In this document: positions 23,843 through 34,320 of the stretch, piece after piece | Layout of the letters: the number at the start of each line of letters is the position of its first letter | Numbering within the stretch: position 1 is the first letter of the stretch | Source: Vulcanimicrobiales bacterium | GTDB lineage: Bacteria; Vulcanimicrobiota; Vulcanimicrobiia; Vulcanimicrobiales; Vulcanimicrobiaceae | Direction: 5' to 3' | NCBI GenBank assembly: GCA_038215615.1 | Contig: JBBQQR010000008.1 | Span: 1-64,000 of the forward strand | Length of the DNA stretch: 64,000 nt | Made by a program: the position numbers and the translations under genes | The notes under the pieces: model-generated | Databases searched by the model: none | The model's input: only the letters and a program-made list of their open reading frames with translations | What the model was told of the DNA's origin: nothing

Positions 23843-24628
23843 ATGCTGACCCCCGAGGCGGTCCTGGAAAGCGCGGCGCGCGTTGGATTGTCGCCCGCAG
23901 CCTTCGTTATCGCCCGGCTCGACAGGGAGAGCGAACGCATCGCCATCGACGCCGGCCATTACTTCTATCCCGCAAGCATGATCAAGACGCCGCTCGCGTT
24001 AGCGGCCTTCACGCTCGTGCAAGACGGCGTCATCAACCTCGACGAGACCTACCCGGTCACGCAAGCGAATATGACGGCCAACGATAAGGACTCGCCGCTG
24101 GTCCCGGGCTACACTGCACCATTGCACCAGCTCATCGAACTGATGCTGACGATCTCCGACAACGTGGCGACGAACGTGCTCTTCGATGCGCTCGGACGCG
24201 AGCGCGCGACGCAGATCGTGCAGCAGCACTACGGTCTGGAGAATACCGCCTTCTATAGAAAGCTCTCCGGCAGCGAACCGCTCATCGTCGACCCCGGCTG
24301 GGACAAGGCGCACCGGAACTCGCACTCCGCCGCCGACGCCGCCCGCCTCTTCGAACTCATCGCGCGCGATGAAGTTCCATTTGCACGGTTGTTCCGCGGA
24401 ATCTTAGACCGCCAGCAGTGGAACAATAAATTGCCGGCGGGCCTGTATCCCGGAGATCGATTCGCGCATAAAACGGGCGACACCGATGAAGTCACCCATG
24501 ACGGCGGGATTTTGGATACGCAAGAAGGCGCGTCTTACGTCGTAGTCGTGTATGCCGGCATGCATTCGAACGACGCGAACAACGCGAAGTTCGGTCCCTT
24601 TATGAGTTCGATCCGCTCGCTGCTTTAA
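23843..24628 (+). CDS. Class A beta-lactamase-like serine hydrolase
   Basis: SMIK (SxxK), SDN and HKTG motifs; no evident signal peptide. Confidence 0.85.
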   Translation: MLTPEAVLESAARVGLSPAAFVIARLDRESERIAIDAGHYFYPASMIKTPLALAAFTLVQDGVINLDETYPVTQANMTANDKDSPLVPGYTAPLHQLIELMLTISDNVATNVLFDALGRERATQIVQQHYGLENTAFYRKLSGSEPLIVDPGWDKAHRNSHSAADAARLFELIARDEVPFARLFRGILDRQQWNNKLPAGLYPGDRFAHKTGDTDEVTHDGGILDTQEGASYVVVVYAGMHSNDANNAKFGPFMSSIRSLL

Positions 24629-25841
24629 GTGCTCCGCCGACGAACGTCTCGCGAACCGCTCCTGGCTGTGCGCGGTAAACAAGCGCGTTGACCAGTGGGG
24701 ACTCGGGCGCAGCGAGGCGATCAAGATCAACGACAGCGTAATCCGCAAATGCGCCTACCCGAAAATCGCCCGCGTCGACGCCGAGCGCTTGCGCACCCAG
24801 CGACGTAGCGAGCCGGAAGGCGCGTGCCGCATCGAACGCTCCCGCATCGCGGCGCGCCAGTTTCTGGAGAAACGAAGCGGCACGCATTTCATCCAGAATC
24901 GATGCATTGACGTTGGCGTCTGTTCCCAATCCGACAGGTACTCCGAGTTCGAGCAAGCCCGCAACGTCGGATATTCCGTCTCCCAAGTACTGGTTGGTCA
25001 CGGGATTGTGAACCACGGATGCCCGCGCGCTCGCCAGCATCTTCTTCTCGTCCGCCTCCAAATAAATTGCGTGAACGGCGACTAGCCGTTCGTCCACGAC
25101 GCCGAGACTCTCGAGCAGGCGCATCGGCGCCATGCCGAATTGTTTTGCGGTTTGTTCGCCTTCGTATGCAGCTTCGGCAACGTGGATGTGCAGGCGGCAG
25201 TTCGCCTCGCGCGCAAACTCGCCGGCCGCGCGGATCATCTCAGGCGAAGCGGCGTGTACGGAGTGCGGAGCGACGCAAACATTTGCCTCGGGGAAACGCG
25301 TCATCAGCTCGCGCGTGCGCGCCGCCGCCATATCGATCGGCTCGCGAAACGCCGCCGGAGCGGTCGGCGCATCCATCCAGCAGCGCGCCAGCACCAGCCG
25401 AATGCCCGTCTCGCGGGCCGCTTGAACGACCGCCTCGGCGTGCGAGTTGCCGCCCCCGTTGAGGTAGAAAAACTCTGCAACGGTCGTGATACCGCCAGCC
25501 AGCATTTCGCGGAATGCCGTCGCAAACGTCCGGCGCACTTCTTCGGGCGAAAGTCCGGGGACGATCCTATACAGCGCCTCATCGCGCCAGCGCGCAAACG
25601 GCAAATCGTCACCGATGCCACGCAGCAGTATCTGATAAGCGTGGCTGTGACAGTTTATGAAACCAGGGATGAGGGCAACGGCGGCGCCGTGCTCGCGAAA
25701 GGCCGCATCCGGAAAACGTTTGCGCAATTCCTCGAACGGCGCGATCGCCGCAATGCGTTCGTTTTGAACCGCAAAACAAAAGTTGCTGCGTTCCTCGGCT
25801 TTAACGAGCGCCAGATCGGCGCGAACGATGACCGCACTCAC
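24600..25841 (-). CDS. Amidohydrolase, probable formimidoylglutamate deiminase (HutF-like)
   Basis: NCHSHAYQ, VAEFFY, APHS, HIHVAE and GTD motifs; last gene of the hut operon. Confidence 0.7.
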   Translation of the reverse strand: MSAVIVRADLALVKAEERSNFCFAVQNERIAAIAPFEELRKRFPDAAFREHGAAVALIPGFINCHSHAYQILLRGIGDDLPFARWRDEALYRIVPGLSPEEVRRTFATAFREMLAGGITTVAEFFYLNGGGNSHAEAVVQAARETGIRLVLARCWMDAPTAPAAFREPIDMAAARTRELMTRFPEANVCVAPHSVHAASPEMIRAAGEFAREANCRLHIHVAEAAYEGEQTAKQFGMAPMRLLESLGVVDERLVAVHAIYLEADEKKMLASARASVVHNPVTNQYLGDGISDVAGLLELGVPVGLGTDANVNASILDEMRAASFLQKLARRDAGAFDAARAFRLATSLGAQALGVDAGDFRVGAFADYAVVDLDRLAAPESPLVNALVYRAQPGAVRETFVGGALKAASGSNS

Positions 25842-27031
25842 GAGAACCGCACGCCGCCGCGGAAGACCGCCGCGGCCAAATTGCCTCCAAATTGAAATCC
25901 GAACTCGTCGGGCGATCCCAGTGTCAGCGCCACGAAGTCCGCGGGCTGTCCGACGCGAATGCGCCCCGCCTCTGCCCGCAGCGATTTAGCTGCCGCAAGC
26001 GTCATTCCGTACAGCGCTTCAGCTGCGCTTAAACCGTAGAGCCTGCGGCCATAGTTCGCGACCGTTTGCAAATTAAAACACGGCGAGGTTCCGGGATTGT
26101 AATCGCTAGCCAGGGCAACGGATCCGCCACGCACGAGAATCTCGCGCACCGGGCATGGCGGGAGCCCGAGATATACGGTCGTAGCGGGACACGCGACGGT
26201 CACGATACGGGCGGCAACGAGCGCTTCGATGTCGTCTTTGCGGACGAAATTGCAATGGTCGACGGTGTCGGCTCCGGCCTGCACTGCCGCCGCTGCCGCC
26301 CCGCTGTAAGACAGCTCGTCGCAATGTGCGCGCAGCCCGAGATCGTGCGAGCGCGCAGCCGTGAGGTAGATCTGCGTTTGCGCAGGCGAAAAGAAACCGG
26401 GCTCGCAAAACACATCCGCGTATACCGCACCGTGTGCCCGGGCTTCCGGCAACACTTCCCCGATTAAGTAGTCGGTATACGCGTCCGCGTCGGGAAATTC
26501 GGACGGCACGGCATGTGCACCCAAGAACGTTGCGATCAGGTGCGGCAATCCGGGCTGATCTTTGTGCGCATCGATCAGGTCGAGCATGTGCAGTTCGCCG
26601 GCCTTCGTCAACGCGTAACCGGTTTTCACTTCGGCCGTCGTTGTGCCGTGCGCGAGCATTAATCTCAGACGGCCTTCGACCGTGCTCCAAAATGCGGCCG
26701 GGTCCAAAAGCGCCTCGCGCGTCCTTTGCACCGTGTGCAGCATCGTTTCGCCGGGTTCGCGCATCCCGGCAAAGAGCGGGTGCGTATGCGCATCGACAAA
26801 TCCGGGCACGACCACGCAATCGGGCAAGTCGAATGACTGCGTGCGCCCCTCGACCTGCGCAACTGCGTCGCGCTGCTCGGGATCCTTCGACAAGCTCAGG
26901 ATGACACCGCGAGCGTCGTCGATCAGAATTGAGCCGTCGCGAATCAGCCCCAGTTGTTCGAAAGTGATTCCGTTTTGTGGCGCGTCCGTATCGCAGGTAA
27001 CGATCGCCCCCGCGCGGACTAAAAGCGCCAA
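25838..27031 (-). CDS. hutI: Imidazolonepropionase
   Basis: DAHTH, EVKTGY, TFLGAH, DVFCE and ALASDYNPG motifs; hut context. Confidence 0.9.
26843..26908 (-). repeat. REP-like two-unit element in frame within hutI
   Basis: GGTGTCATCCT-GAGCTTGTCGA-AGGAT followed by CCC-GAGC-[hairpin]-GGTCGA-GGGG; encodes [21 protein letters not shown]. Confidence 0.8.
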
Positions 27032-28671
27032 TCGATGCCTTTTGCGTCGGCCGTTTCGATCGCGGACTCATATCCGGCGTCGGCATGACGCACGACGCCG
27101 AGTCCCGGATCCGTCGTCAGCACGCACTGCAGGCGGTCGCGCGCGTCGTCGGTTCCGTCGGCGACGACGACCATGCCCGCGTGCAAACTGTAGCCGATTC
27201 CGACTCCGCCGCCGTGATGAAACGAAACCCAGTGCGCGCCCGCAGCCGTGTTCAGCAACGCGTTGAGAATGGGCCAATCCGCAATTGCGTCGCTGCCGTC
27301 GCGCATTGCTTCGGTTTCGCGATAGGGCGAAGCGACGCTACCCGCGTCCAAGTGGTCGCGGCCGATCACGATCGGCGCCCGCAGCTCGCCGGAACGCACG
27401 AGTTCGTTGAAACGGACGCCGGCGGTCGCGCGCTCGCCGTACGCCAGCCAGCAAATTCGCGCCGGCAGACCTTGGAAGGCGACGCGATCGCGCGCGAGCG
27501 TAATCCACCGCCGCAGCGCTTCATCTTCCGGGAAAAGCCGCAGCAACTCTTCGTCGCAGCGCGCAATGTCTAGCGCGTCGCCCGAAAGCGCCGCAAACCG
27601 GAACGGTCCGCTTCCGCGACAGAAAAGCGGCCGGATAAAAGCCGGGACAAAGCCGGGGAAATCAAACGCGCGCTCGACGCCGGCGCGCTGTGCCATCGCG
27701 CGCAGATTGTTGCCGTAATCGAAAACGACTGCGCCGTCTCTCTGGAAACCGAGCATTGCCCGGACGTGATCGGCGACCGTCGCAAACGCCCGCTTCTCAT
27801 ATTCTTTTGCATCGCGCGCACGAAGCTCGGCTGCTTCTTCAACCGAAAGGCCGGCTGGAATATAAGCCCCGATCATGTCGTGGGCGGGAGTCTGATCGGT
27901 AACGACGTCCGGCTGCAAGCCCTCCGCCAGCAGTGCGGGAAACTCCGAGCCCGCATTTCCGGCGTAGCCGATCGACACGGCGCGGCCTTCGCGCCGCGCG
28001 GCTTCAATTTCGCGAAGCGCTTGCGCCCGCGACGCGACCACGCGATCGAGATACTTTAGTACGCGCCGGCGTTCGAGCCGCTGCGGGTCGACGTCCACGA
28101 TCAGCGCGATGCCTTCGTTCATCGTAATCGCCAGCGGCTGCGCGCCGCCCATGCCGCCGGCGCCGGCGGTCAAACAGACGCGTCCACGAAGACTACCGCC
28201 GAAATGCCTGCGCGCAAGCTCGGCAAACGTCTCGTAGGTGCCTTGCACGATGCCTTGCGAGCCGATGTACATCCAAGAGCCCGCCGTCATTTGGCCGTAC
28301 ATCGTTAACCCTTGCGCCTCGAGCTCGCGGAAGGTTTGGAGATCGGCCCACTTCGGCACGATGTTGGCATTGGCGATCAGAACGCGCGGAGCGCGCGCAT
28401 GCGTCTTGAAGATCGCGACCGCTTTGCCGCTTTGCACCAGCAGCGTCTCGTCGTTTGCCAAGCGCTTGAGCGCGCGCACGATCTCTTCGAAGGCTTCCCA
28501 CGAACGCGCCGCGCGGCCGTTGCCGCCATAAACGATCAGTTCCTCCGGCCGTTCGGCAACGTCGGGATCGAGATTGTTCATGAGCATGCGCAGCGCGGCT
28601 TCCTGCGGCCAAGCTTTGCAAGAAAGCTCCGATCCCCGCGGTGCGCGCACGGTTCGCGAAAACGTCTTCAC
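27019..28671 (-). CDS. hutU: Urocanate hydratase
   Basis: [33 protein letters not shown] and HHGGGVG motifs. Start probably GTG 28671 (GTGA overlap); alternative 28689. Confidence 0.97.
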
Positions 28672-28772
28672 GTTGACCGTGGCTCCCACAGCTCGATGCG
28701 ATTACATTCATTGAGCGCTTCCGGGTCCTTGGCCGTAAAGAATATTCCGCCGACTCCAGCGATGCGTTTCAT
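28668..28772 (-). pseudogene. Internally deleted VOC/glyoxalase gene remnant (34-aa mini-ORF)
   Basis: MKRIAGVGGIFFTAKDPEALNE joined to [12 protein letters not shown], resembling the N- and C-termini of a VOC protein with the middle missing. Confidence 0.75.
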
Positions 28773-30304
28773 TTTGTAGCGGCATTTTCGGCAGCGTTCA
28801 CGATTTCGCCGCTCGCGATCAACGCGCGGGCAGCGGTGATGTCGGGAGCGGGAGAGCGGTCCTCGCGCCATGCCGTGATGCTCTTGCGTGCCGCGTCGTA
28901 CGCGGCTTGCGTGCCAACCCCAGAACGCAGCGGACGCCGGAAATCCGTGGCCGCGAGCGCTGCAAGCAACTCGCAGGCCAGCGACCCTTCGACGTTGTCG
29001 AGAACTCGGTCGAGATTGAGCGCCGCGGTCATGCCCATGCTGACGTGGTCTTCTTGCCCGGCCGACGTCGGAATCGAATCGACGCTGTTCGGCCACGCCA
29101 ATCCCTTGTTCTCCGAAACGAGCGCAGCCGACGTGTACTGCACGATCATCAGACCCGACTGTAATCCCGAGCGGCCCGTGAGGAAAAGCGGCAAGCCGCG
29201 CTCTTCGGCATTCAGTAACAGGTAGAGCCGGCGCTCGCTGATCGAGGCCAATTCTGCAAGAGCAATCTTCAGCACGTCGCAGGCGAGGGCCACCGGTTGG
29301 CCGTGGAAGTTTCCGCCGCTCAGGAATTCACCGTCGTCAGGAAAGACCAAAGGATTATCGGTAACGGAAATCGCTTCCGTTTCGATCGCGGTACGCGCGT
29401 AGGCGGAAGCATCACGCACGGCGCCGTGCACGACCGGGATGCAGCGGTACGAGTACGGATCTTGAACGCGGCCGCATTCGCGATGCGATTCGATGATCTC
29501 CGAGCCGCGCAGAAGGGTCCGCAAGTGCTCGGCCACGGCCGCCTGTCCGGGATGGGGACGCAGCGCGTTGATGCGGCGGTCGAAGACGCGATCCGTACCG
29601 AGAAACGCTTCAAGCGACATCGCGCCGATAACGTCGGCGGCGTCCAATAAGGATTCGGCGCGCAACAGCGAGAGCGCGGCGATGCCCGTCATCGCTTCGG
29701 TGCCGTTGACCAGCGAAAGTCCCTCTTTTGGAGCGAGTTTTATCGGATTTAGGCCAGCGAGCTGCAGAGCTCGCGCGCTCGGCATCTTCTCACCGCCGAA
29801 ATACGCCTCGCCTTCGCCTATGAGCGTCAGCGTCATGTGTGCGAGCGGAGCGAGATCGCCGCTGGCTCCAACTGAACCTTGCGACGGCACGTAAGGCGTA
29901 ACTCCGCGGTTGAGCAGCGCTGCCAAAAGATCGAGCGTCTCTTCGCGGATGCCTGAATGGCCCGCGGCAAGCGAACTCACGCGCAACACCCCGGCGGCGC
30001 GCACGAAGCGATCCGAAAGTGGCAGCCCCGTGCCGGCCGCGTGGCTGCGTACTAAGTTCAGCTGCAATTGCTCGGCGTCGGCGCGCGCGATCGGAACCTG
30101 GGCCAGGCGCCCGAAACCGGTCGTGACGCCATAGATCGCTTCGCCCTGCGCTATTTTTTCGTCGACCAGGCTACGGGCGGCCGCAACCCGGCGCCGCGCA
30201 CCGGACGAGATCGCCACCTGCGCCCCGTTAACGGCAACCGCGTGAATCGCTTCGAGGGGCAGGTGCCGCCCGTCGAGTTCGACGGGCGGAGGAACGGACT
30301 CCAT
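28769..30304 (-). CDS. hutH: Histidine ammonia-lyase
   Basis: YGVTTGFG, MIO-forming ASG in GSVGASGDLAPL, QDPYSYRC, GGNFHG and QEDHVSMG motifs. Confidence 0.97.
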   Translation of the reverse strand: MESVPPPVELDGRHLPLEAIHAVAVNGAQVAISSGARRRVAAARSLVDEKIAQGEAIYGVTTGFGRLAQVPIARADAEQLQLNLVRSHAAGTGLPLSDRFVRAAGVLRVSSLAAGHSGIREETLDLLAALLNRGVTPYVPSQGSVGASGDLAPLAHMTLTLIGEGEAYFGGEKMPSARALQLAGLNPIKLAPKEGLSLVNGTEAMTGIAALSLLRAESLLDAADVIGAMSLEAFLGTDRVFDRRINALRPHPGQAAVAEHLRTLLRGSEIIESHRECGRVQDPYSYRCIPVVHGAVRDASAYARTAIETEAISVTDNPLVFPDDGEFLSGGNFHGQPVALACDVLKIALAELASISERRLYLLLNAEERGLPLFLTGRSGLQSGLMIVQYTSAALVSENKGLAWPNSVDSIPTSAGQEDHVSMGMTAALNLDRVLDNVEGSLACELLAALAATDFRRPLRSGVGTQAAYDAARKSITAWREDRSPAPDITAARALIASGEIVNAAENAATK

Positions 30305-30861: not shown

Positions 30862-31368
30862 TTACAGAAGGCCCCAATTGGGTTTGCGCGAGACCGCGAA
30901 GGGCGGTCCGGATTCGATGACGATCGTTTCATGGTTTTGCAGCGGGATACGTTTGGGATCTCGCGTCCACACGCGGCCATTCACGAGGAATCGCAGGCTC
31001 GTGCCTCGGCCCGCGCTAAGCCCGCCGGCTTGCGAGCGGCTCAAGTTCACCGCCCAAATATCAAAGAACTGACCCAGCGTAAAGAGTTGATTCACGGGCG
31101 ATTCGATATGAATCATGCCGTTGTTGGAATGCGTGTGCATCCAGTATAGGCAGCCGGCGCCGATCGGAATCCCGATATTCGAAGGGACCGTCTTCTTTCG
31201 GCCGCGGTCGTACATTTGGAGGTTGGCATGGATGTGCAGCGCGGCGCCTTCTCCGGATTCGCAGCGAATGCCGTCGACGGGAAGGCCGCCCAGCATGCTC
31301 TGTGCGCGGCCCGAAACCGTAAGTAATACCAGCATTAGCGCGAGGCTAACCGTGGAACGTCTGTGCAT
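30862..31368 (-). CDS. Exported His-motif hypothetical protein
   Basis: Signal/TM N-terminus; HIH, CLYWMHTH, GMIHIESP and FTLGQFFDIW segments; start set at ATG 31368. Confidence 0.75.
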   Translation of the reverse strand: MHRRSTVSLALMLVLLTVSGRAQSMLGGLPVDGIRCESGEGAALHIHANLQMYDRGRKKTVPSNIGIPIGAGCLYWMHTHSNNGMIHIESPVNQLFTLGQFFDIWAVNLSRSQAGGLSAGRGTSLRFLVNGRVWTRDPKRIPLQNHETIVIESGPPFAVSRKPNWGLL

Positions 31369-31414
31369 AACTAAACTTTGTTGTGGAAACGTTGTGAGTA
31401 CATCGAGCAGCCTA

Positions 31415-31444
31415 TTGCATACGACTTTTGAGCCGTGATACCAT
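31415..31444 (+). promoter_or_regulatory. Sigma70-type promoter for the downstream ncRNA
   Basis: TTGCAT (31415-31420), 18-nt spacer, TACCAT (31439-31444) with extended -10 TG at 31436-31437. Confidence 0.6.
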
Positions 31445-31450
31445 CCATTC

Positions 31451-31650
31451 ACTTCGATAAAACGGAGGGCGATGAACGTATCGGTCGCGACTGGAACATG
31501 TTGACGAAGGCCGGGATGACCGGCAATCTGAGTGACTCAGTTAAACCGCCGGGTACGGCGTCAGTGGGGCTCCGTCACGGGAGTCAAACAGGCGAAGACC
31601 GGTGAGTGAATACGTCGGGGCCCCGGAGAAATCTGGGGCTTCGTCATTTT
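31451..31650 (+). ncRNA. Putative structured ncRNA of about 200 nt, class unassigned (6S/Ms1-like or novel)
   Basis: Intergenic and bounded by a promoter and a terminator. Long-range pairing ACGTAT/ATACGT, ATCGGTC/GACCGGT, TTGAC/GTCAA encloses four short hairpins. Confidence 0.65.
31616..31650 (+). terminator. Intrinsic terminator-like hairpin
   Basis: CGGGGCCCCGGA-GAAA-TCTGGGGCTTCG followed by TCATTTT; three G-U pairs favour the plus strand. Confidence 0.7.
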
Positions 31651-32630
31651 CCGCCGTACATTCCGGCGATCTCACCGGCCAGTTCGGCAATGCGATCGCG
31701 CGCGAGCGCCGGAGATACGATTTCGGCTTGGGCGCCCCAACTCAAGACCCACCGCGCCAGCTCGTCAACATCGGCCACGCTGTACGTTATCTCGACCGGC
31801 CCGTCGCCGTCTTGGGAAACGGCGCGATCCGCGACGATGCGCGCCGCGATTGCGGCCTTCGCTACCCGCGGAGCGAAGCGCACGCGAACGTCGGTCGTTT
31901 CATCGCTGTGAAGCACCCCGCTGATCGAGCTGGCTGCAAACGCCTCGACATTGAACGAAGCCGGCTTCACGAACGTCTGCGCGGTCACCTTAAGGTCCGA
32001 GATGCTGTCGACGGCAAAGGTGCGCTTGTCTTTGCGGGCGCGATCGTAGGCGACACAGTAGACGCGCCCCGCGCTCACGATGAAGCCATAGGGGTCGGCC
32101 TGCCGCTTCGAGCGGACGCCTTCCTTATCGCGGTAGGTGAAGCGGACGCTGCGCGAGCTGCGCTCCGCCGACGATAGCAGTCCGAAGATACGTTCGCCTT
32201 GTTCGTCGAGCCTGATCTCGCTGAGTCTAAATGTCATGGACGAAGGCGTTTCGAGTCGCTCTTTTACGCCCGTGCCGGTCGAGCCCACGATTTTTGCGGT
32301 GACTTCGTCCACGTAGGAGCCGATCGTGCCGCCCAGCGTCGCGCCGATCGAGCGCAGCGCCACCAGCCCGAAGAGTTCGTTGCTGTTCAGCTCGAGCCGT
32401 TTGAGGCTATAGCCGCCCGCGAAGCGGTAGACGTTGGCCGCGCGATCGCAGTACCACGGAAACCCCGCTTCGGCCAAGATGGCGAGATAGCGCCGAAGGC
32501 TGCGCGTGCTGGGACGCCGCTCGCCTTCCGCGATACGGTCTTTCAGATCCTCAAATGAAAAACGCCCCTCATCGATAGCGTTGAGGAGCCGCACGAGCAA
32601 AACGGTTTTCGGCTCACTAGGCCGTTCCAC
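31644..32630 (-). CDS. HTH-WYL-WCX transcriptional regulator (PafBC/DriD-like)
   Basis: wHTH (STRSLRRYLAILAEAGFP), WYL region (RQADPYGF...YCVAYD...RTFAVDSI), WCX (WVLSWGAQAEIVSP). Confidence 0.9.
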   Translation of the reverse strand: MERPSEPKTVLLVRLLNAIDEGRFSFEDLKDRIAEGERRPSTRSLRRYLAILAEAGFPWYCDRAANVYRFAGGYSLKRLELNSNELFGLVALRSIGATLGGTIGSYVDEVTAKIVGSTGTGVKERLETPSSMTFRLSEIRLDEQGERIFGLLSSAERSSRSVRFTYRDKEGVRSKRQADPYGFIVSAGRVYCVAYDRARKDKRTFAVDSISDLKVTAQTFVKPASFNVEAFAASSISGVLHSDETTDVRVRFAPRVAKAAIAARIVADRAVSQDGDGPVEITYSVADVDELARWVLSWGAQAEIVSPALARDRIAELAGEIAGMYGGK

Positions 32631-32661: not shown

Positions 32662-34320
32662 TCAGCGGGCGGTCGGCTCGGGTAGCGGCGAAGCCTGCGG
32701 CGGCGGCGATGATTGCGGCGAGGCCTGCGGCTTCGGGAAACAGCCGTTCGGCGCCGTGATGGGCGGCGGGTTTGGCGACGGCGGCGCCGCCGTCAAGCCG
32801 ACCTCGAGCGGATAGAACGAGCCGCCGTCCGTCATGGTCTGGATCTGAATCGAACTCGCACCCGGTGGCGTCTGTATCGCGTCACCGATCTGATAATGCT
32901 CGGCGGCCCGCGCGCATTGTATCTCGATTGCTCGAGTCGCGCCAAAGGCGGTTACCAGGAAATTGCTGCGCACCGGGCCGCCCATCGGCTGCTCGTAGAG
33001 ATAAAGTGCCGCAGTCCGCCCGGTCGGATTCGTGACGGAGAAATTCAGCGTGCGCCAGACGCCGTACTCGCCGAAGTCACGGCCATCAGGCGGTTCGAGG
33101 GTCGGCGGACTGTGCAAACCGTAGTCGAGCGAAACGTCGTCGCCGCCGACCCGGTACGCAAGCGTGTCCCGGGCGTATCCGTCGATATTGAAGACGCCCG
33201 TACGGTGATGGCCGTCGCCCGGAAGCTTTGGTTGCGTCAATAATCCCGGAATCGCAGAGTCCGGCGTATTCTGCGCGACGGCCAGAACCGTCACGTCGAG
33301 CGCGCCGCCGGAAAGAATGCGCACGTCGATATTGCCGGCGACTCCGTTTAGAGGCTGCATCGCAAATCTCTGTGCGATATAGGGAGATTCCGGGGCGACC
33401 GTGATAACGAGCCCCTCGTTGATCGGCTTGCGGCTCAGGAAGTCGCGCGTGACTGCGTGACCGACCTGCATGACGTCGATGTTCGGGCCGGCCGACGCAT
33501 CGATCAGCTGCACGGTCGATGCGCCGGAAGGCGCTGAAAACACGACGGCCAGGTCGCGCGGCTGCGCGTTGTCGTCGTGGTAATAGTAGAGCCGCGCCGG
33601 CGTTGCGGGGTCGATATGCCCGCGATAGAGCACGCCTTCCATCCTTATGTGCTCGGGATCGTCGTCGTAGAAAAGGACGGGCGCCGCAAACGTTTGCGCG
33701 GCCACGTTCTGAAGGTTGACGTTGACGAGCCCACTCATGGGATAGTAGTTATCGCTGCCCGCCACTTGCACCTGAGCGTCAAACGCGCCGATGCTTCCGG
33801 GCGCGAGTGCGGCCGGAAGATTGAAACTCGTTTGCGCTTGGACTCCGGGCTGCAACTGTACGTTGCGCAGTATCGACCGCTGTACCGTCTGCTGCAGCCA
33901 CGATAGATCGACGGGATTTCCCGTGTACTGTACCGACAGTGTTTGCGAAAGAAGTTTGGCCGCATCGACGGCCACGCGGACCGGAATCAAAATGCGCTGC
34001 GCACTTCCATCGGAAATCGTGAGCACGCCGCGGCCGAGCGTTTGCCCGGCGGTTAGCGTAACGACGTGCGCGTTTTGGTCGATGTTCCAGGTGATGATCG
34101 GATTATCGATCGACACGCCGATCGACCCCAGCGAATTAGCAACCGCTACCGGAAGCACGCCGCCCGGATATAAGTGGTCGGCCGCAAACGGCTGCGCGCT
34201 CAACTGCGCCGAGGGAGCCTGCGAAGCGATTGGCGAGGGTGACGAGGTCGGCGATGGTACCGGCGAAGGCGGCACTTGCAGCAATGCCGCAAGCAAGCTC
34301 GCTACGAGTGTCTGCACCAT
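32662..34320 (-). CDS. Exported hypothetical protein with Pro-rich termini
   Basis: 552-aa ORF; signal-like N-terminus, PSP repeats, beta-rich core with FYDDDPE...GVLYRG...RLYYYH. Confidence 0.75.
   Translation of the reverse strand: MVQTLVASLLAALLQVPPSPVPSPTSSPSPIASQAPSAQLSAQPFAADHLYPGGVLPVAVANSLGSIGVSIDNPIITWNIDQNAHVVTLTAGQTLGRGVLTISDGSAQRILIPVRVAVDAAKLLSQTLSVQYTGNPVDLSWLQQTVQRSILRNVQLQPGVQAQTSFNLPAALAPGSIGAFDAQVQVAGSDNYYPMSGLVNVNLQNVAAQTFAAPVLFYDDDPEHIRMEGVLYRGHIDPATPARLYYYHDDNAQPRDLAVVFSAPSGASTVQLIDASAGPNIDVMQVGHAVTRDFLSRKPINEGLVITVAPESPYIAQRFAMQPLNGVAGNIDVRILSGGALDVTVLAVAQNTPDSAIPGLLTQPKLPGDGHHRTGVFNIDGYARDTLAYRVGGDDVSLDYGLHSPPTLEPPDGRDFGEYGVWRTLNFSVTNPTGRTAALYLYEQPMGGPVRSNFLVTAFGATRAIEIQCARAAEHYQIGDAIQTPPGASSIQIQTMTDGGSFYPLEVGLTAAPPSPNPPPITAPNGCFPKPQASPQSSPPPQASPLPEPTAR

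Follow-up and report, generated by a model that had tools for sequence, protein, structure and literature searches.

An undescribed pseudoknotted non-coding RNA family in one order of Eremiobacterota soil bacteria

The 64,000-nucleotide stretch of Vulcanimicrobiales DNA analysed here (the window) carries a member of an undescribed family of pseudoknotted non-coding RNAs, which belongs to one order of Eremiobacterota soil bacteria. The RNA is about 200 bases long, has its own promoter and terminator, and is preceded by an array of DnaA-box-like sites at a fixed distance from the promoter. Stand-alone bacterial RNA classes with a complex fold are few, and most of them come without a clue to function. 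The box array, common to the dnaA region and the minCD operon, is such a clue and points towards replication and division control.

A separately transcribed RNA gene

The RNA gene (31451–31649, plus strand) lies in the gap between two genes of the minus strand. The divergent one (30862–31335, start approximate) encodes a hypothetical protein and is not needed for the RNA unit. The convergent one (31644–32630), the usual neighbour, encodes a 328-residue regulator with WYL and WCX domains (Pfam PF13280 and PF25583; PDB relatives) that resembles PafB/PafC and DriD. The gene is read from a σ70-type promoter at 31415–31444 (plus strand), with the −35 hexamer at 31415–31420, an 18-nt spacer, and an extended −10 element at 31436–31444 in which TG (31436–31437) precedes the −10 hexamer (31439–31444). 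The conserved start of the RNA is placed 7 nt past the −10 hexamer, and its 3' end, judged from RNA contigs, at about 31647–31649. An intrinsic terminator (31616–31650, plus strand) consists of a 12-bp hairpin (31616–31643) and a T tail that overlaps the stop codon of the WYL gene.

Both promoter hexamers are kept in 40 aligned copies, with TTG invariant and the TG, TA, A and T of the −10 element present in at least 90%. A strict promoter scan of the window did not list this promoter, which has 8 of 12 matches. A hairpin below −10 kcal/mol follows the RNA in 56 of 56 distinct copies. The plus strand folds more stably than each of 200 shuffled sequences (z −3.5, or −2.9 without the terminator) and more stably than the minus strand (−86.6 versus −59.8 kcal/mol). 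The promoter, hairpin and terminator letters given by the first-pass annotation are all present at its positions, and the promoter and terminator that it assigned to the RNA are both conserved across homologues. Its description of the site, correct for promoter, terminator and RNA gene, did not include the 5' hairpin, three of the other helices, the array of boxes upstream or the second genomic copy.

Twenty-four sequencing runs of 14 studies hold part of 31300–31760. Eight of them, picked for holding the stretch, were examined as contigs only, which carry no strand, start or level. Four RNA runs from four studies each gave one contig within 31460–31647, with 27–28 of 30 bins over a 2.7-kb stretch empty, which for the flanks in RNA runs is not proof of silence. 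One RNA contig ends with 11 untemplated A residues at 31647, inside the terminator tail. Among the matches listed, three further RNA runs gave contigs 31471–31633, 31475–31649 and 31470–31631, the third of which has 43 letters off the stretch; a contig from a probable DNA run, unlike those of the RNA runs, crosses the promoter. The contigs differ from the window at 3–5 letters and thus come from relatives. Contigs of seven metatranscriptome studies, all within 31460–31649, hint at a discrete transcript confined to the gene.

Promoter, terminator, covariation (see below) and gene-confined transcripts agree with the stand-alone RNA first proposed, and a separately transcribed RNA gene of about 200 bases is almost certainly real. 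A riboswitch, already thought unlikely, finds no place here, as the WYL gene is convergent, no gene lies downstream on the same strand, and the neighbours vary at other RNA loci.

A pseudoknot joins an early loop to the 3' tail

Comparison across copies gave seven helices and one pseudoknot, all on the plus strand. The percentages below refer to paired cells in 55 distinct copies, left from 62 rows after removal of four false matches, two rows of one short-contig locus, and duplicates. The RNA begins with a local 5'-terminal hairpin, P1 (31452–31456 with 31463–31467; 98%), which shows two-sided changes in divergent copies. The next hairpin, P2 (31469–31473 with 31484–31488; 96%, 20 two-sided cells), holds in its loop the 5' strand of the pseudoknot PK1, in which 31476–31481 pair with 31610–31615 in the 3' tail, directly before the terminator (87%). 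The P3 domain (31489–31493 with 31538–31542; 94%, 49 two-sided cells) encloses a variable hairpin, P4 (31510–31514 with 31520–31524), of which 81% of cells pair as an aligned helix and 5 of 5 pairs have two-sided changes. The remaining arm contains P5 (31547–31552 with 31599–31604; 86%), P6 (31559–31565 with 31588–31594; 97%) and P7 (31568–31573 with 31580–31585; 95%). P6 has an A·A mismatch and persists in the sister family, where a U-A pair has become C-G.

Covariation supports these seven helices and the pseudoknot that links the early loop to the 3' tail. In a model-fitted alignment of 44 distinct copies, which leans towards the model and samples related, non-independent genomes, two-sided changes are seen at 31 of 37 pairs, a count that 0 of 500 shuffles attain, and 92% of cells are paired compared with 31–44% in slid controls. 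In the unfitted seed alignment, 21 of the 42 proposed pairs change on both sides, which none of 500 shuffles reaches; this figure rests partly on an unpublished genome (G028). The covariation anticipated for a genuine structured RNA is therefore present. Consistently, the PK1 helix occurs in at least four sequence types across lineages, all still complementary. When 144 promoter-defined copies, genome G030 included, were parsed automatically, 136 could be read, among them two false picks and some misparsed copies; 98 of the 136 have a run of at least five Watson–Crick pairs from loop to tail, compared with 434 of 2678 cross pairs with unlike loops. Copies from the sister family and from one divergent genus change letters in P1, P2 and P6 and retain the pairs.

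Inspection by eye showed that single copies have lost P4, the inside of P3, or the whole P5–P7 arm; the mismatch helix is conserved in most copies and its arm is gone or rewritten in some. Because these inner domains are absent from single copies, the constant core comprises P1, P2, PK1 and the terminator, and the natural deletion variants define a minimal core of 5' hairpin, P2 and end-joining pseudoknot.

The first-pass annotation had drawn a nested fold with a branched apex. For the window's own copy, a nearest-neighbour energy model, which cannot score pseudoknots, recovers that nested fold and prefers it over P2, P3 and P5 (pair probabilities at most 0.1); comparison across copies disagrees with it. 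Four of its seven internal stems are not conserved (31480/31597 and 31501/31583, 57% each; 31528/31536, 54%; 31547/31556, 67%). Its 31568/31580 hairpin survives, with 95% of cells paired. The 31476/31610 pairing also survives, at 87% of cells, as a pseudoknot and not as a closing stem. The 31510/31520 hairpin pairs in 33% of cells in the register drawn and in 81% as an aligned helix, the low value arising from variation in helix length. The branched apex is thus largely replaced by a pseudoknotted multi-domain fold.

An alternative second pseudoknot (31501–31506 with 31559–31564) was dropped, with 68% of cells paired and 1 two-sided cell. A small reading frame at 31474 (10 codons, preceded by a Shine–Dalgarno-like word) is not conserved, and 49 of 56 copies lack its start codon.

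Occurrence in one order among the genomes searched

By BLAST, the stretch was matched in 22 of 61 genomes (G028 and G030 among the 61), some with two or three tandem copies. A first covariance model, built from 18 copies including one seed copy (L014) from G028, matched 89 of 150 genomes of the class Vulcanimicrobiia. Not counting the window's own genome, these comprise 87 of 114 same-family genomes, none of three from the sister family and one of 32 from the next family (f3). The lone f3 match, which has neither promoter nor terminator, is false. The wider search of the phylum used a sequence-only model that takes in the promoter and matched 82 of 150 genomes. The expectation that relatives hold homologues is borne out by 74 of 84 same-family genomes (two of the matches weak, one of these inspected and not confirmed) and 3 of 3 sister-family genomes. 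The four matches among 11 f3 genomes proved false on inspection, being either within reading frames or boxes with no promoter and RNA, as did a further pattern match in f3. The 51 genomes of 15 other Eremiobacterota families gave no match to the sequence-only model. The RNA family is thus limited to one order among the genomes searched.

A core pattern run over one genome per species found 83 stretches, of which 79 score with the covariance model; the other four, all from other phyla, do not match it. Among the 80 of 83 stretches listed, those matching the model carry Vulcanimicrobiota or Eremiobacterota labels, except for four labelled 'uncultured bacterium' and three with other depositor labels. 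In viral contigs, 23 of 23 pattern matches score at most 12.4 bits and are due to chance. A fixed-spacing pattern searched in 14 genomes was too rigid to be informative.

Genomes carry one to four diverged copies, and many have two that are unlinked. The second, diverged copy in the window's genome lies at C14:26067–26225 (minus strand, 65 bits), between a HIT-like gene upstream and an rpsU-yqeY region downstream (gene names from translations), and has five box-like repeats upstream. Elsewhere, second copies adjoin an OPT transporter gene, nadA, a proline dehydrogenase gene and other genes, and every such copy has its boxes, promoter and terminator. Ten of 84 same-family genomes gave no match to the RNA, which therefore seems dispensable. 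Across the order, 16 of 300 alignment columns, promoter included, are invariant.

Comparison with known RNA families

Among 4227 Rfam families, none matched the window or eight further homologue loci at the gathering score, and at E up to 10 the window has six chance-level matches only, so the undescribed class proposed at the outset stands. SRP RNA, RNase P RNA and tmRNA had likewise been set aside, and such RNAs or a motif were located elsewhere in the genome: SRP RNA on contig C44 (68.6 bits), tmRNA on C7 (116 bits) and, by motif scan only, an RNase P-like motif on C23. The genome contains no raiA motif (RF03072) at E up to 10 and no TROVE-domain gene, the Rsr/Ro60 criterion for a Y RNA. 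The RNA belongs to none of the families tested; its broad kind, the orphan structured RNA, is already known. No earlier report of it was found in the literature searched, a body that leaves out most subscription papers. Term look-ups in the main texts of PMC11109978 and PMC5737381 gave no match, and the supplements of these papers list many motifs that may bear on novelty.

The raiA motif RNA offers the closest likeness in kind: as described in PMC10861870 and PMC12968392, it is about 200 nt long, independently transcribed and of unknown function, with a complex pseudoknotted fold and optional peripheral domains. The same accounts give it a highly conserved P1 that closes the 5' and 3' ends, two pseudoknots, 51 highly conserved positions, and a single copy sited by raiA or comFC; PK1 and PK2 arise from the P5–P6 linker (PMC12968392). 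In contrast, the Vulcanimicrobiales RNA starts with a local hairpin and pairs an early loop with the 3' tail; its invariant letters are few, and it occurs in one to four copies. Neither the closing P1, the pseudoknot topology, the raiA/comFC site nor the single copy of raiA RNA is found in it.

A divergent 6S RNA, one of two identities suggested by the first-pass annotation, does not fit. The RNA resembles 6S (RF00013), Ms1 and CoRP in being a stand-alone bacterial RNA gene of similar size with its own promoter and terminator (as these are presented in PMC11077062), but it lacks a closing rod with a central bubble, has a local 5' hairpin instead, matches no Rfam family, and shares its genome with a separate 6S-like RNA. 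The latter lies at C5:71518–71700 (minus strand), where a same-genus 6S candidate maps at 88% identity and the fold is rod-like. RF00013 has no match in the window's genome and matches 33 of 40 phylum genomes at E up to 0.1, 21 of them above the cut-off. Sister-family homologues of the C5 RNA pass the cut-off, and the C5 RNA itself is probably a 6S RNA too diverged for RF00013 here.

A different RNA came up in f3: in 5 of 5 genomes of that family, a candidate about 200–450 nt upstream of clpC is rod-closed and was rejected as a family member. This conserved RNA of about 180 nt has a promoter of its own, and its 5' and 3' ends form a closing stem in all five.

An array of DnaA-box-like sites upstream of the promoter

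Three putative boxes, arranged as direct repeats, precede the promoter. Site A (31362–31370) is an exact match on the minus strand to the consensus TTATNCACA, taken as in PMC4447404. Site B (31382–31390), the best conserved, follows 20 nt after A, and site C (31393–31401), absent from one divergent genus, follows 11 nt after B; all three are listed on the plus strand. B and C deviate from the consensus. In 56 of 56 copies, site B is 68–71 nt ahead of the point where the RNA starts, the best match having been sought within a 16-nt range. Among 56 distinct upstream regions, one or more boxes within one mismatch occur in 54 and two or more in 35, compared with 592 and 8 of 20,000 random windows, respectively; none of 52 other extended −10 promoter-like sites has two or more boxes. 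The array accompanies tandem copies as well as copies at unrelated loci, and its distance to the −35 hexamer is fixed in every copy. Several boxes matching TTATNCACA therefore stand close to the promoter, as in a DnaA-regulated promoter.

A weight matrix made from the RNA upstream regions ranked the two RNA copies of the genome first (both were in its training set) and the minC-minD upstream region third; the minC region was absent from training. Before minC, the three-box spacing was scored in 22 genomes of the order: 15 exceed 14, six score 4–10 and one lacks the spacing, compared with at most 5.4 among 30 control stretches. In the next family (8 genomes), the spacing gave no score on that strand before minC, and boxes occur there in 7 of 8 genomes in another arrangement. 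In the window's genome the minC-minD operon with its three-box array is at C2:54552. A strict genome-wide scan for clustered boxes returned three places, before dnaA, at the RNA promoter and at C12:38746, and missed the second RNA copy and minC. The C12 cluster of box-like sites lies beside a divergent gene.

Look-alike boxes with the same letters lie upstream of dnaA, and the DnaA of this genome keeps the usual box-reading helix of the protein (DHTTV). What looks like a replication origin in two parts, at the end of contig C5 and at C2:1350–1800, consists of DnaA boxes before dnaA and an AT-rich stretch with trinucleotide repeats between dnaA and dnaN.

Judged from the sites and their conservation, the RNA promoter is likely to be under DnaA control, in which case the DnaA regulon of this widespread soil phylum would include a structured RNA. 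The nearest parallel is sda of Bacillus subtilis, where a DnaA-box array at a promoter outside the origin would tie expression to the state of DnaA, according to the account in PMC4447404. The differences are that the product here is a structured RNA and not a protein, that the 20 + 11 nt spacing is common to minCD, and that the boxes are putative. By analogy with sda, the effect of DnaA would most likely be activation.

Possible function and alternatives

The reading we favour, tentatively and at somewhat under even chances, is that DnaA sets the level of a stable, folded, protein-binding RNA that reports replication status as a decoy or scaffold. DnaA would bind the three boxes just upstream of the promoter; since these would lie on one helical face and end about 14 nt before the −35 hexamer, activation as at sda, not repression, would be expected. 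The RNA would work through its shape, on a protein: its helices are kept as their letters change, some copies lack whole inner domains, and neither a single-stranded seed nor a reading frame recurs throughout the family. Nuclease attack on either end would be hindered by the 5' hairpin, the end-joining pseudoknot and the terminator. The first candidate for the protein partner is the neighbouring WYL regulator and the second is RNA polymerase; these two possibilities are specific forms of the protein-binding reading and are weighed separately below. In a bolder form, the DnaA regulon would have this order-wide, multi-copy class as its main non-coding product, synthesised in parallel with minCD, and the RNA would relay replication status by binding a protein, for instance the nucleic-acid-sensing WYL regulator beside it. 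This form appears rather unlikely; if true, it would amount to an RNA-based replication checkpoint without a described counterpart.

WYL domains sense single-stranded nucleic acid, and the RNA could be a ligand or antagonist of the neighbouring regulator, tying the DnaA signal to a DNA-damage response of the PafBC/DriD type. Of 64 genomes (G028 and G030 among them), 56 have a WYL orthologue within the RNA locus, and some of the eight misses are short contigs or inserts. The WYL orthologues are close (47–65%) in the RNA-bearing order and distant (at most 35%) in 9 of 9 neighbouring-family and 2 of 3 further genomes, in a comparison that included G048. However, hutH is linked almost equally often (45 of 64), so that plain synteny can explain the association. 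Moreover, one genus, represented by three genomes, has the RNA between miaB and mutS and far from the WYL gene in all three, and second copies lie elsewhere. Among seven family genomes picked for lacking the RNA, six keep the WYL orthologue with no RNA beside it. The link is therefore not obligatory, and the WYL ligand is an improbable identity for the RNA.

Similarly improbable is an Ms1/CoRP-type RNA that binds the RNA polymerase core beside a separate 6S RNA. Size, a promoter and terminator of its own and presence in many soil transcriptomes are in keeping with such an RNA, and PMC11077062 presents new RNAs that bind polymerase and have no sequence relationship to 6S or Ms1. Yet the fold has no promoter-mimicking rod or bubble and no Rfam match, the 6S slot is filled, and one to four diverged copies with deleted domains are carried.

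The boxes themselves might be no DnaA switch and instead serve another regulator or titrate DnaA at the DNA level, with the RNA constitutive. A different factor could read TGTG-type repeats in place of DnaA. The off-consensus letters of B and C, and the occurrence of two boxes within one mismatch in only 35 of 56 regions, are compatible with this alternative, as are the DnaA-box clusters outside oriC reported for B. subtilis in PMC4447404. It accounts poorly for a distance to the −35 hexamer that is fixed in every copy, for boxes co-duplicated with each tandem copy, and for the same letters before dnaA in a genome whose DnaA keeps the usual box-reading helix; we consider it quite unlikely.

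A regulator that base-pairs with cell-cycle mRNAs is very unlikely. The model is CcnA of Caulobacter crescentus, a non-coding RNA wired to a cell-cycle master regulator, which PMC8959179 describes as located at the origin, presumably activated by CtrA, and pairing with mRNAs. The upstream array common to minCD would suit such a role, and when 487 crude gene starts are ordered by the energy of their duplex with the window's copy, the minC start region comes 10th. By contrast, minC ranks 74th for the second copy, dnaA ranks 349th and 314th, and pairing in 14 genomes is not improved when RNA and minC are matched instead of mismatched (permutation p 0.36). The segment that would pair is part of P5–P7. 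Two single-stranded words in the P3 domain, kept in part of the family, could be pairing seeds, but none is common to the whole family. No conserved or co-varying target emerged among those tested, and the RNA, unlike CcnA, lies away from the origin and has DnaA-type boxes.

A ribozyme or a sensor of some ligand by unknown chemistry would suit the compact pseudoknotted fold and the A·A mismatch helix of most copies, and is the least probable reading given the few invariant positions, the loss or rewriting of the mismatch arm in some copies and the lack of a same-strand downstream gene.

Genes around the RNA loci

In most family members the locus is flanked by a histidine-utilisation run, which in the window occupies 24600–30304 (minus strand) and contains histidine ammonia-lyase (by Pfam) as well as urocanase and two amidohydrolases (from translations). 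Two conserved proteins without a Pfam or NCBIfam family, encoded at 30862–31335 and 32662–34320 (minus strand), flank the RNA-WYL pair across the family. In one further genome (G117:C6:325731–327509), two identical inverted RNA copies surround two partial WYL genes near a contig end, an arrangement that is probably an assembly artefact.
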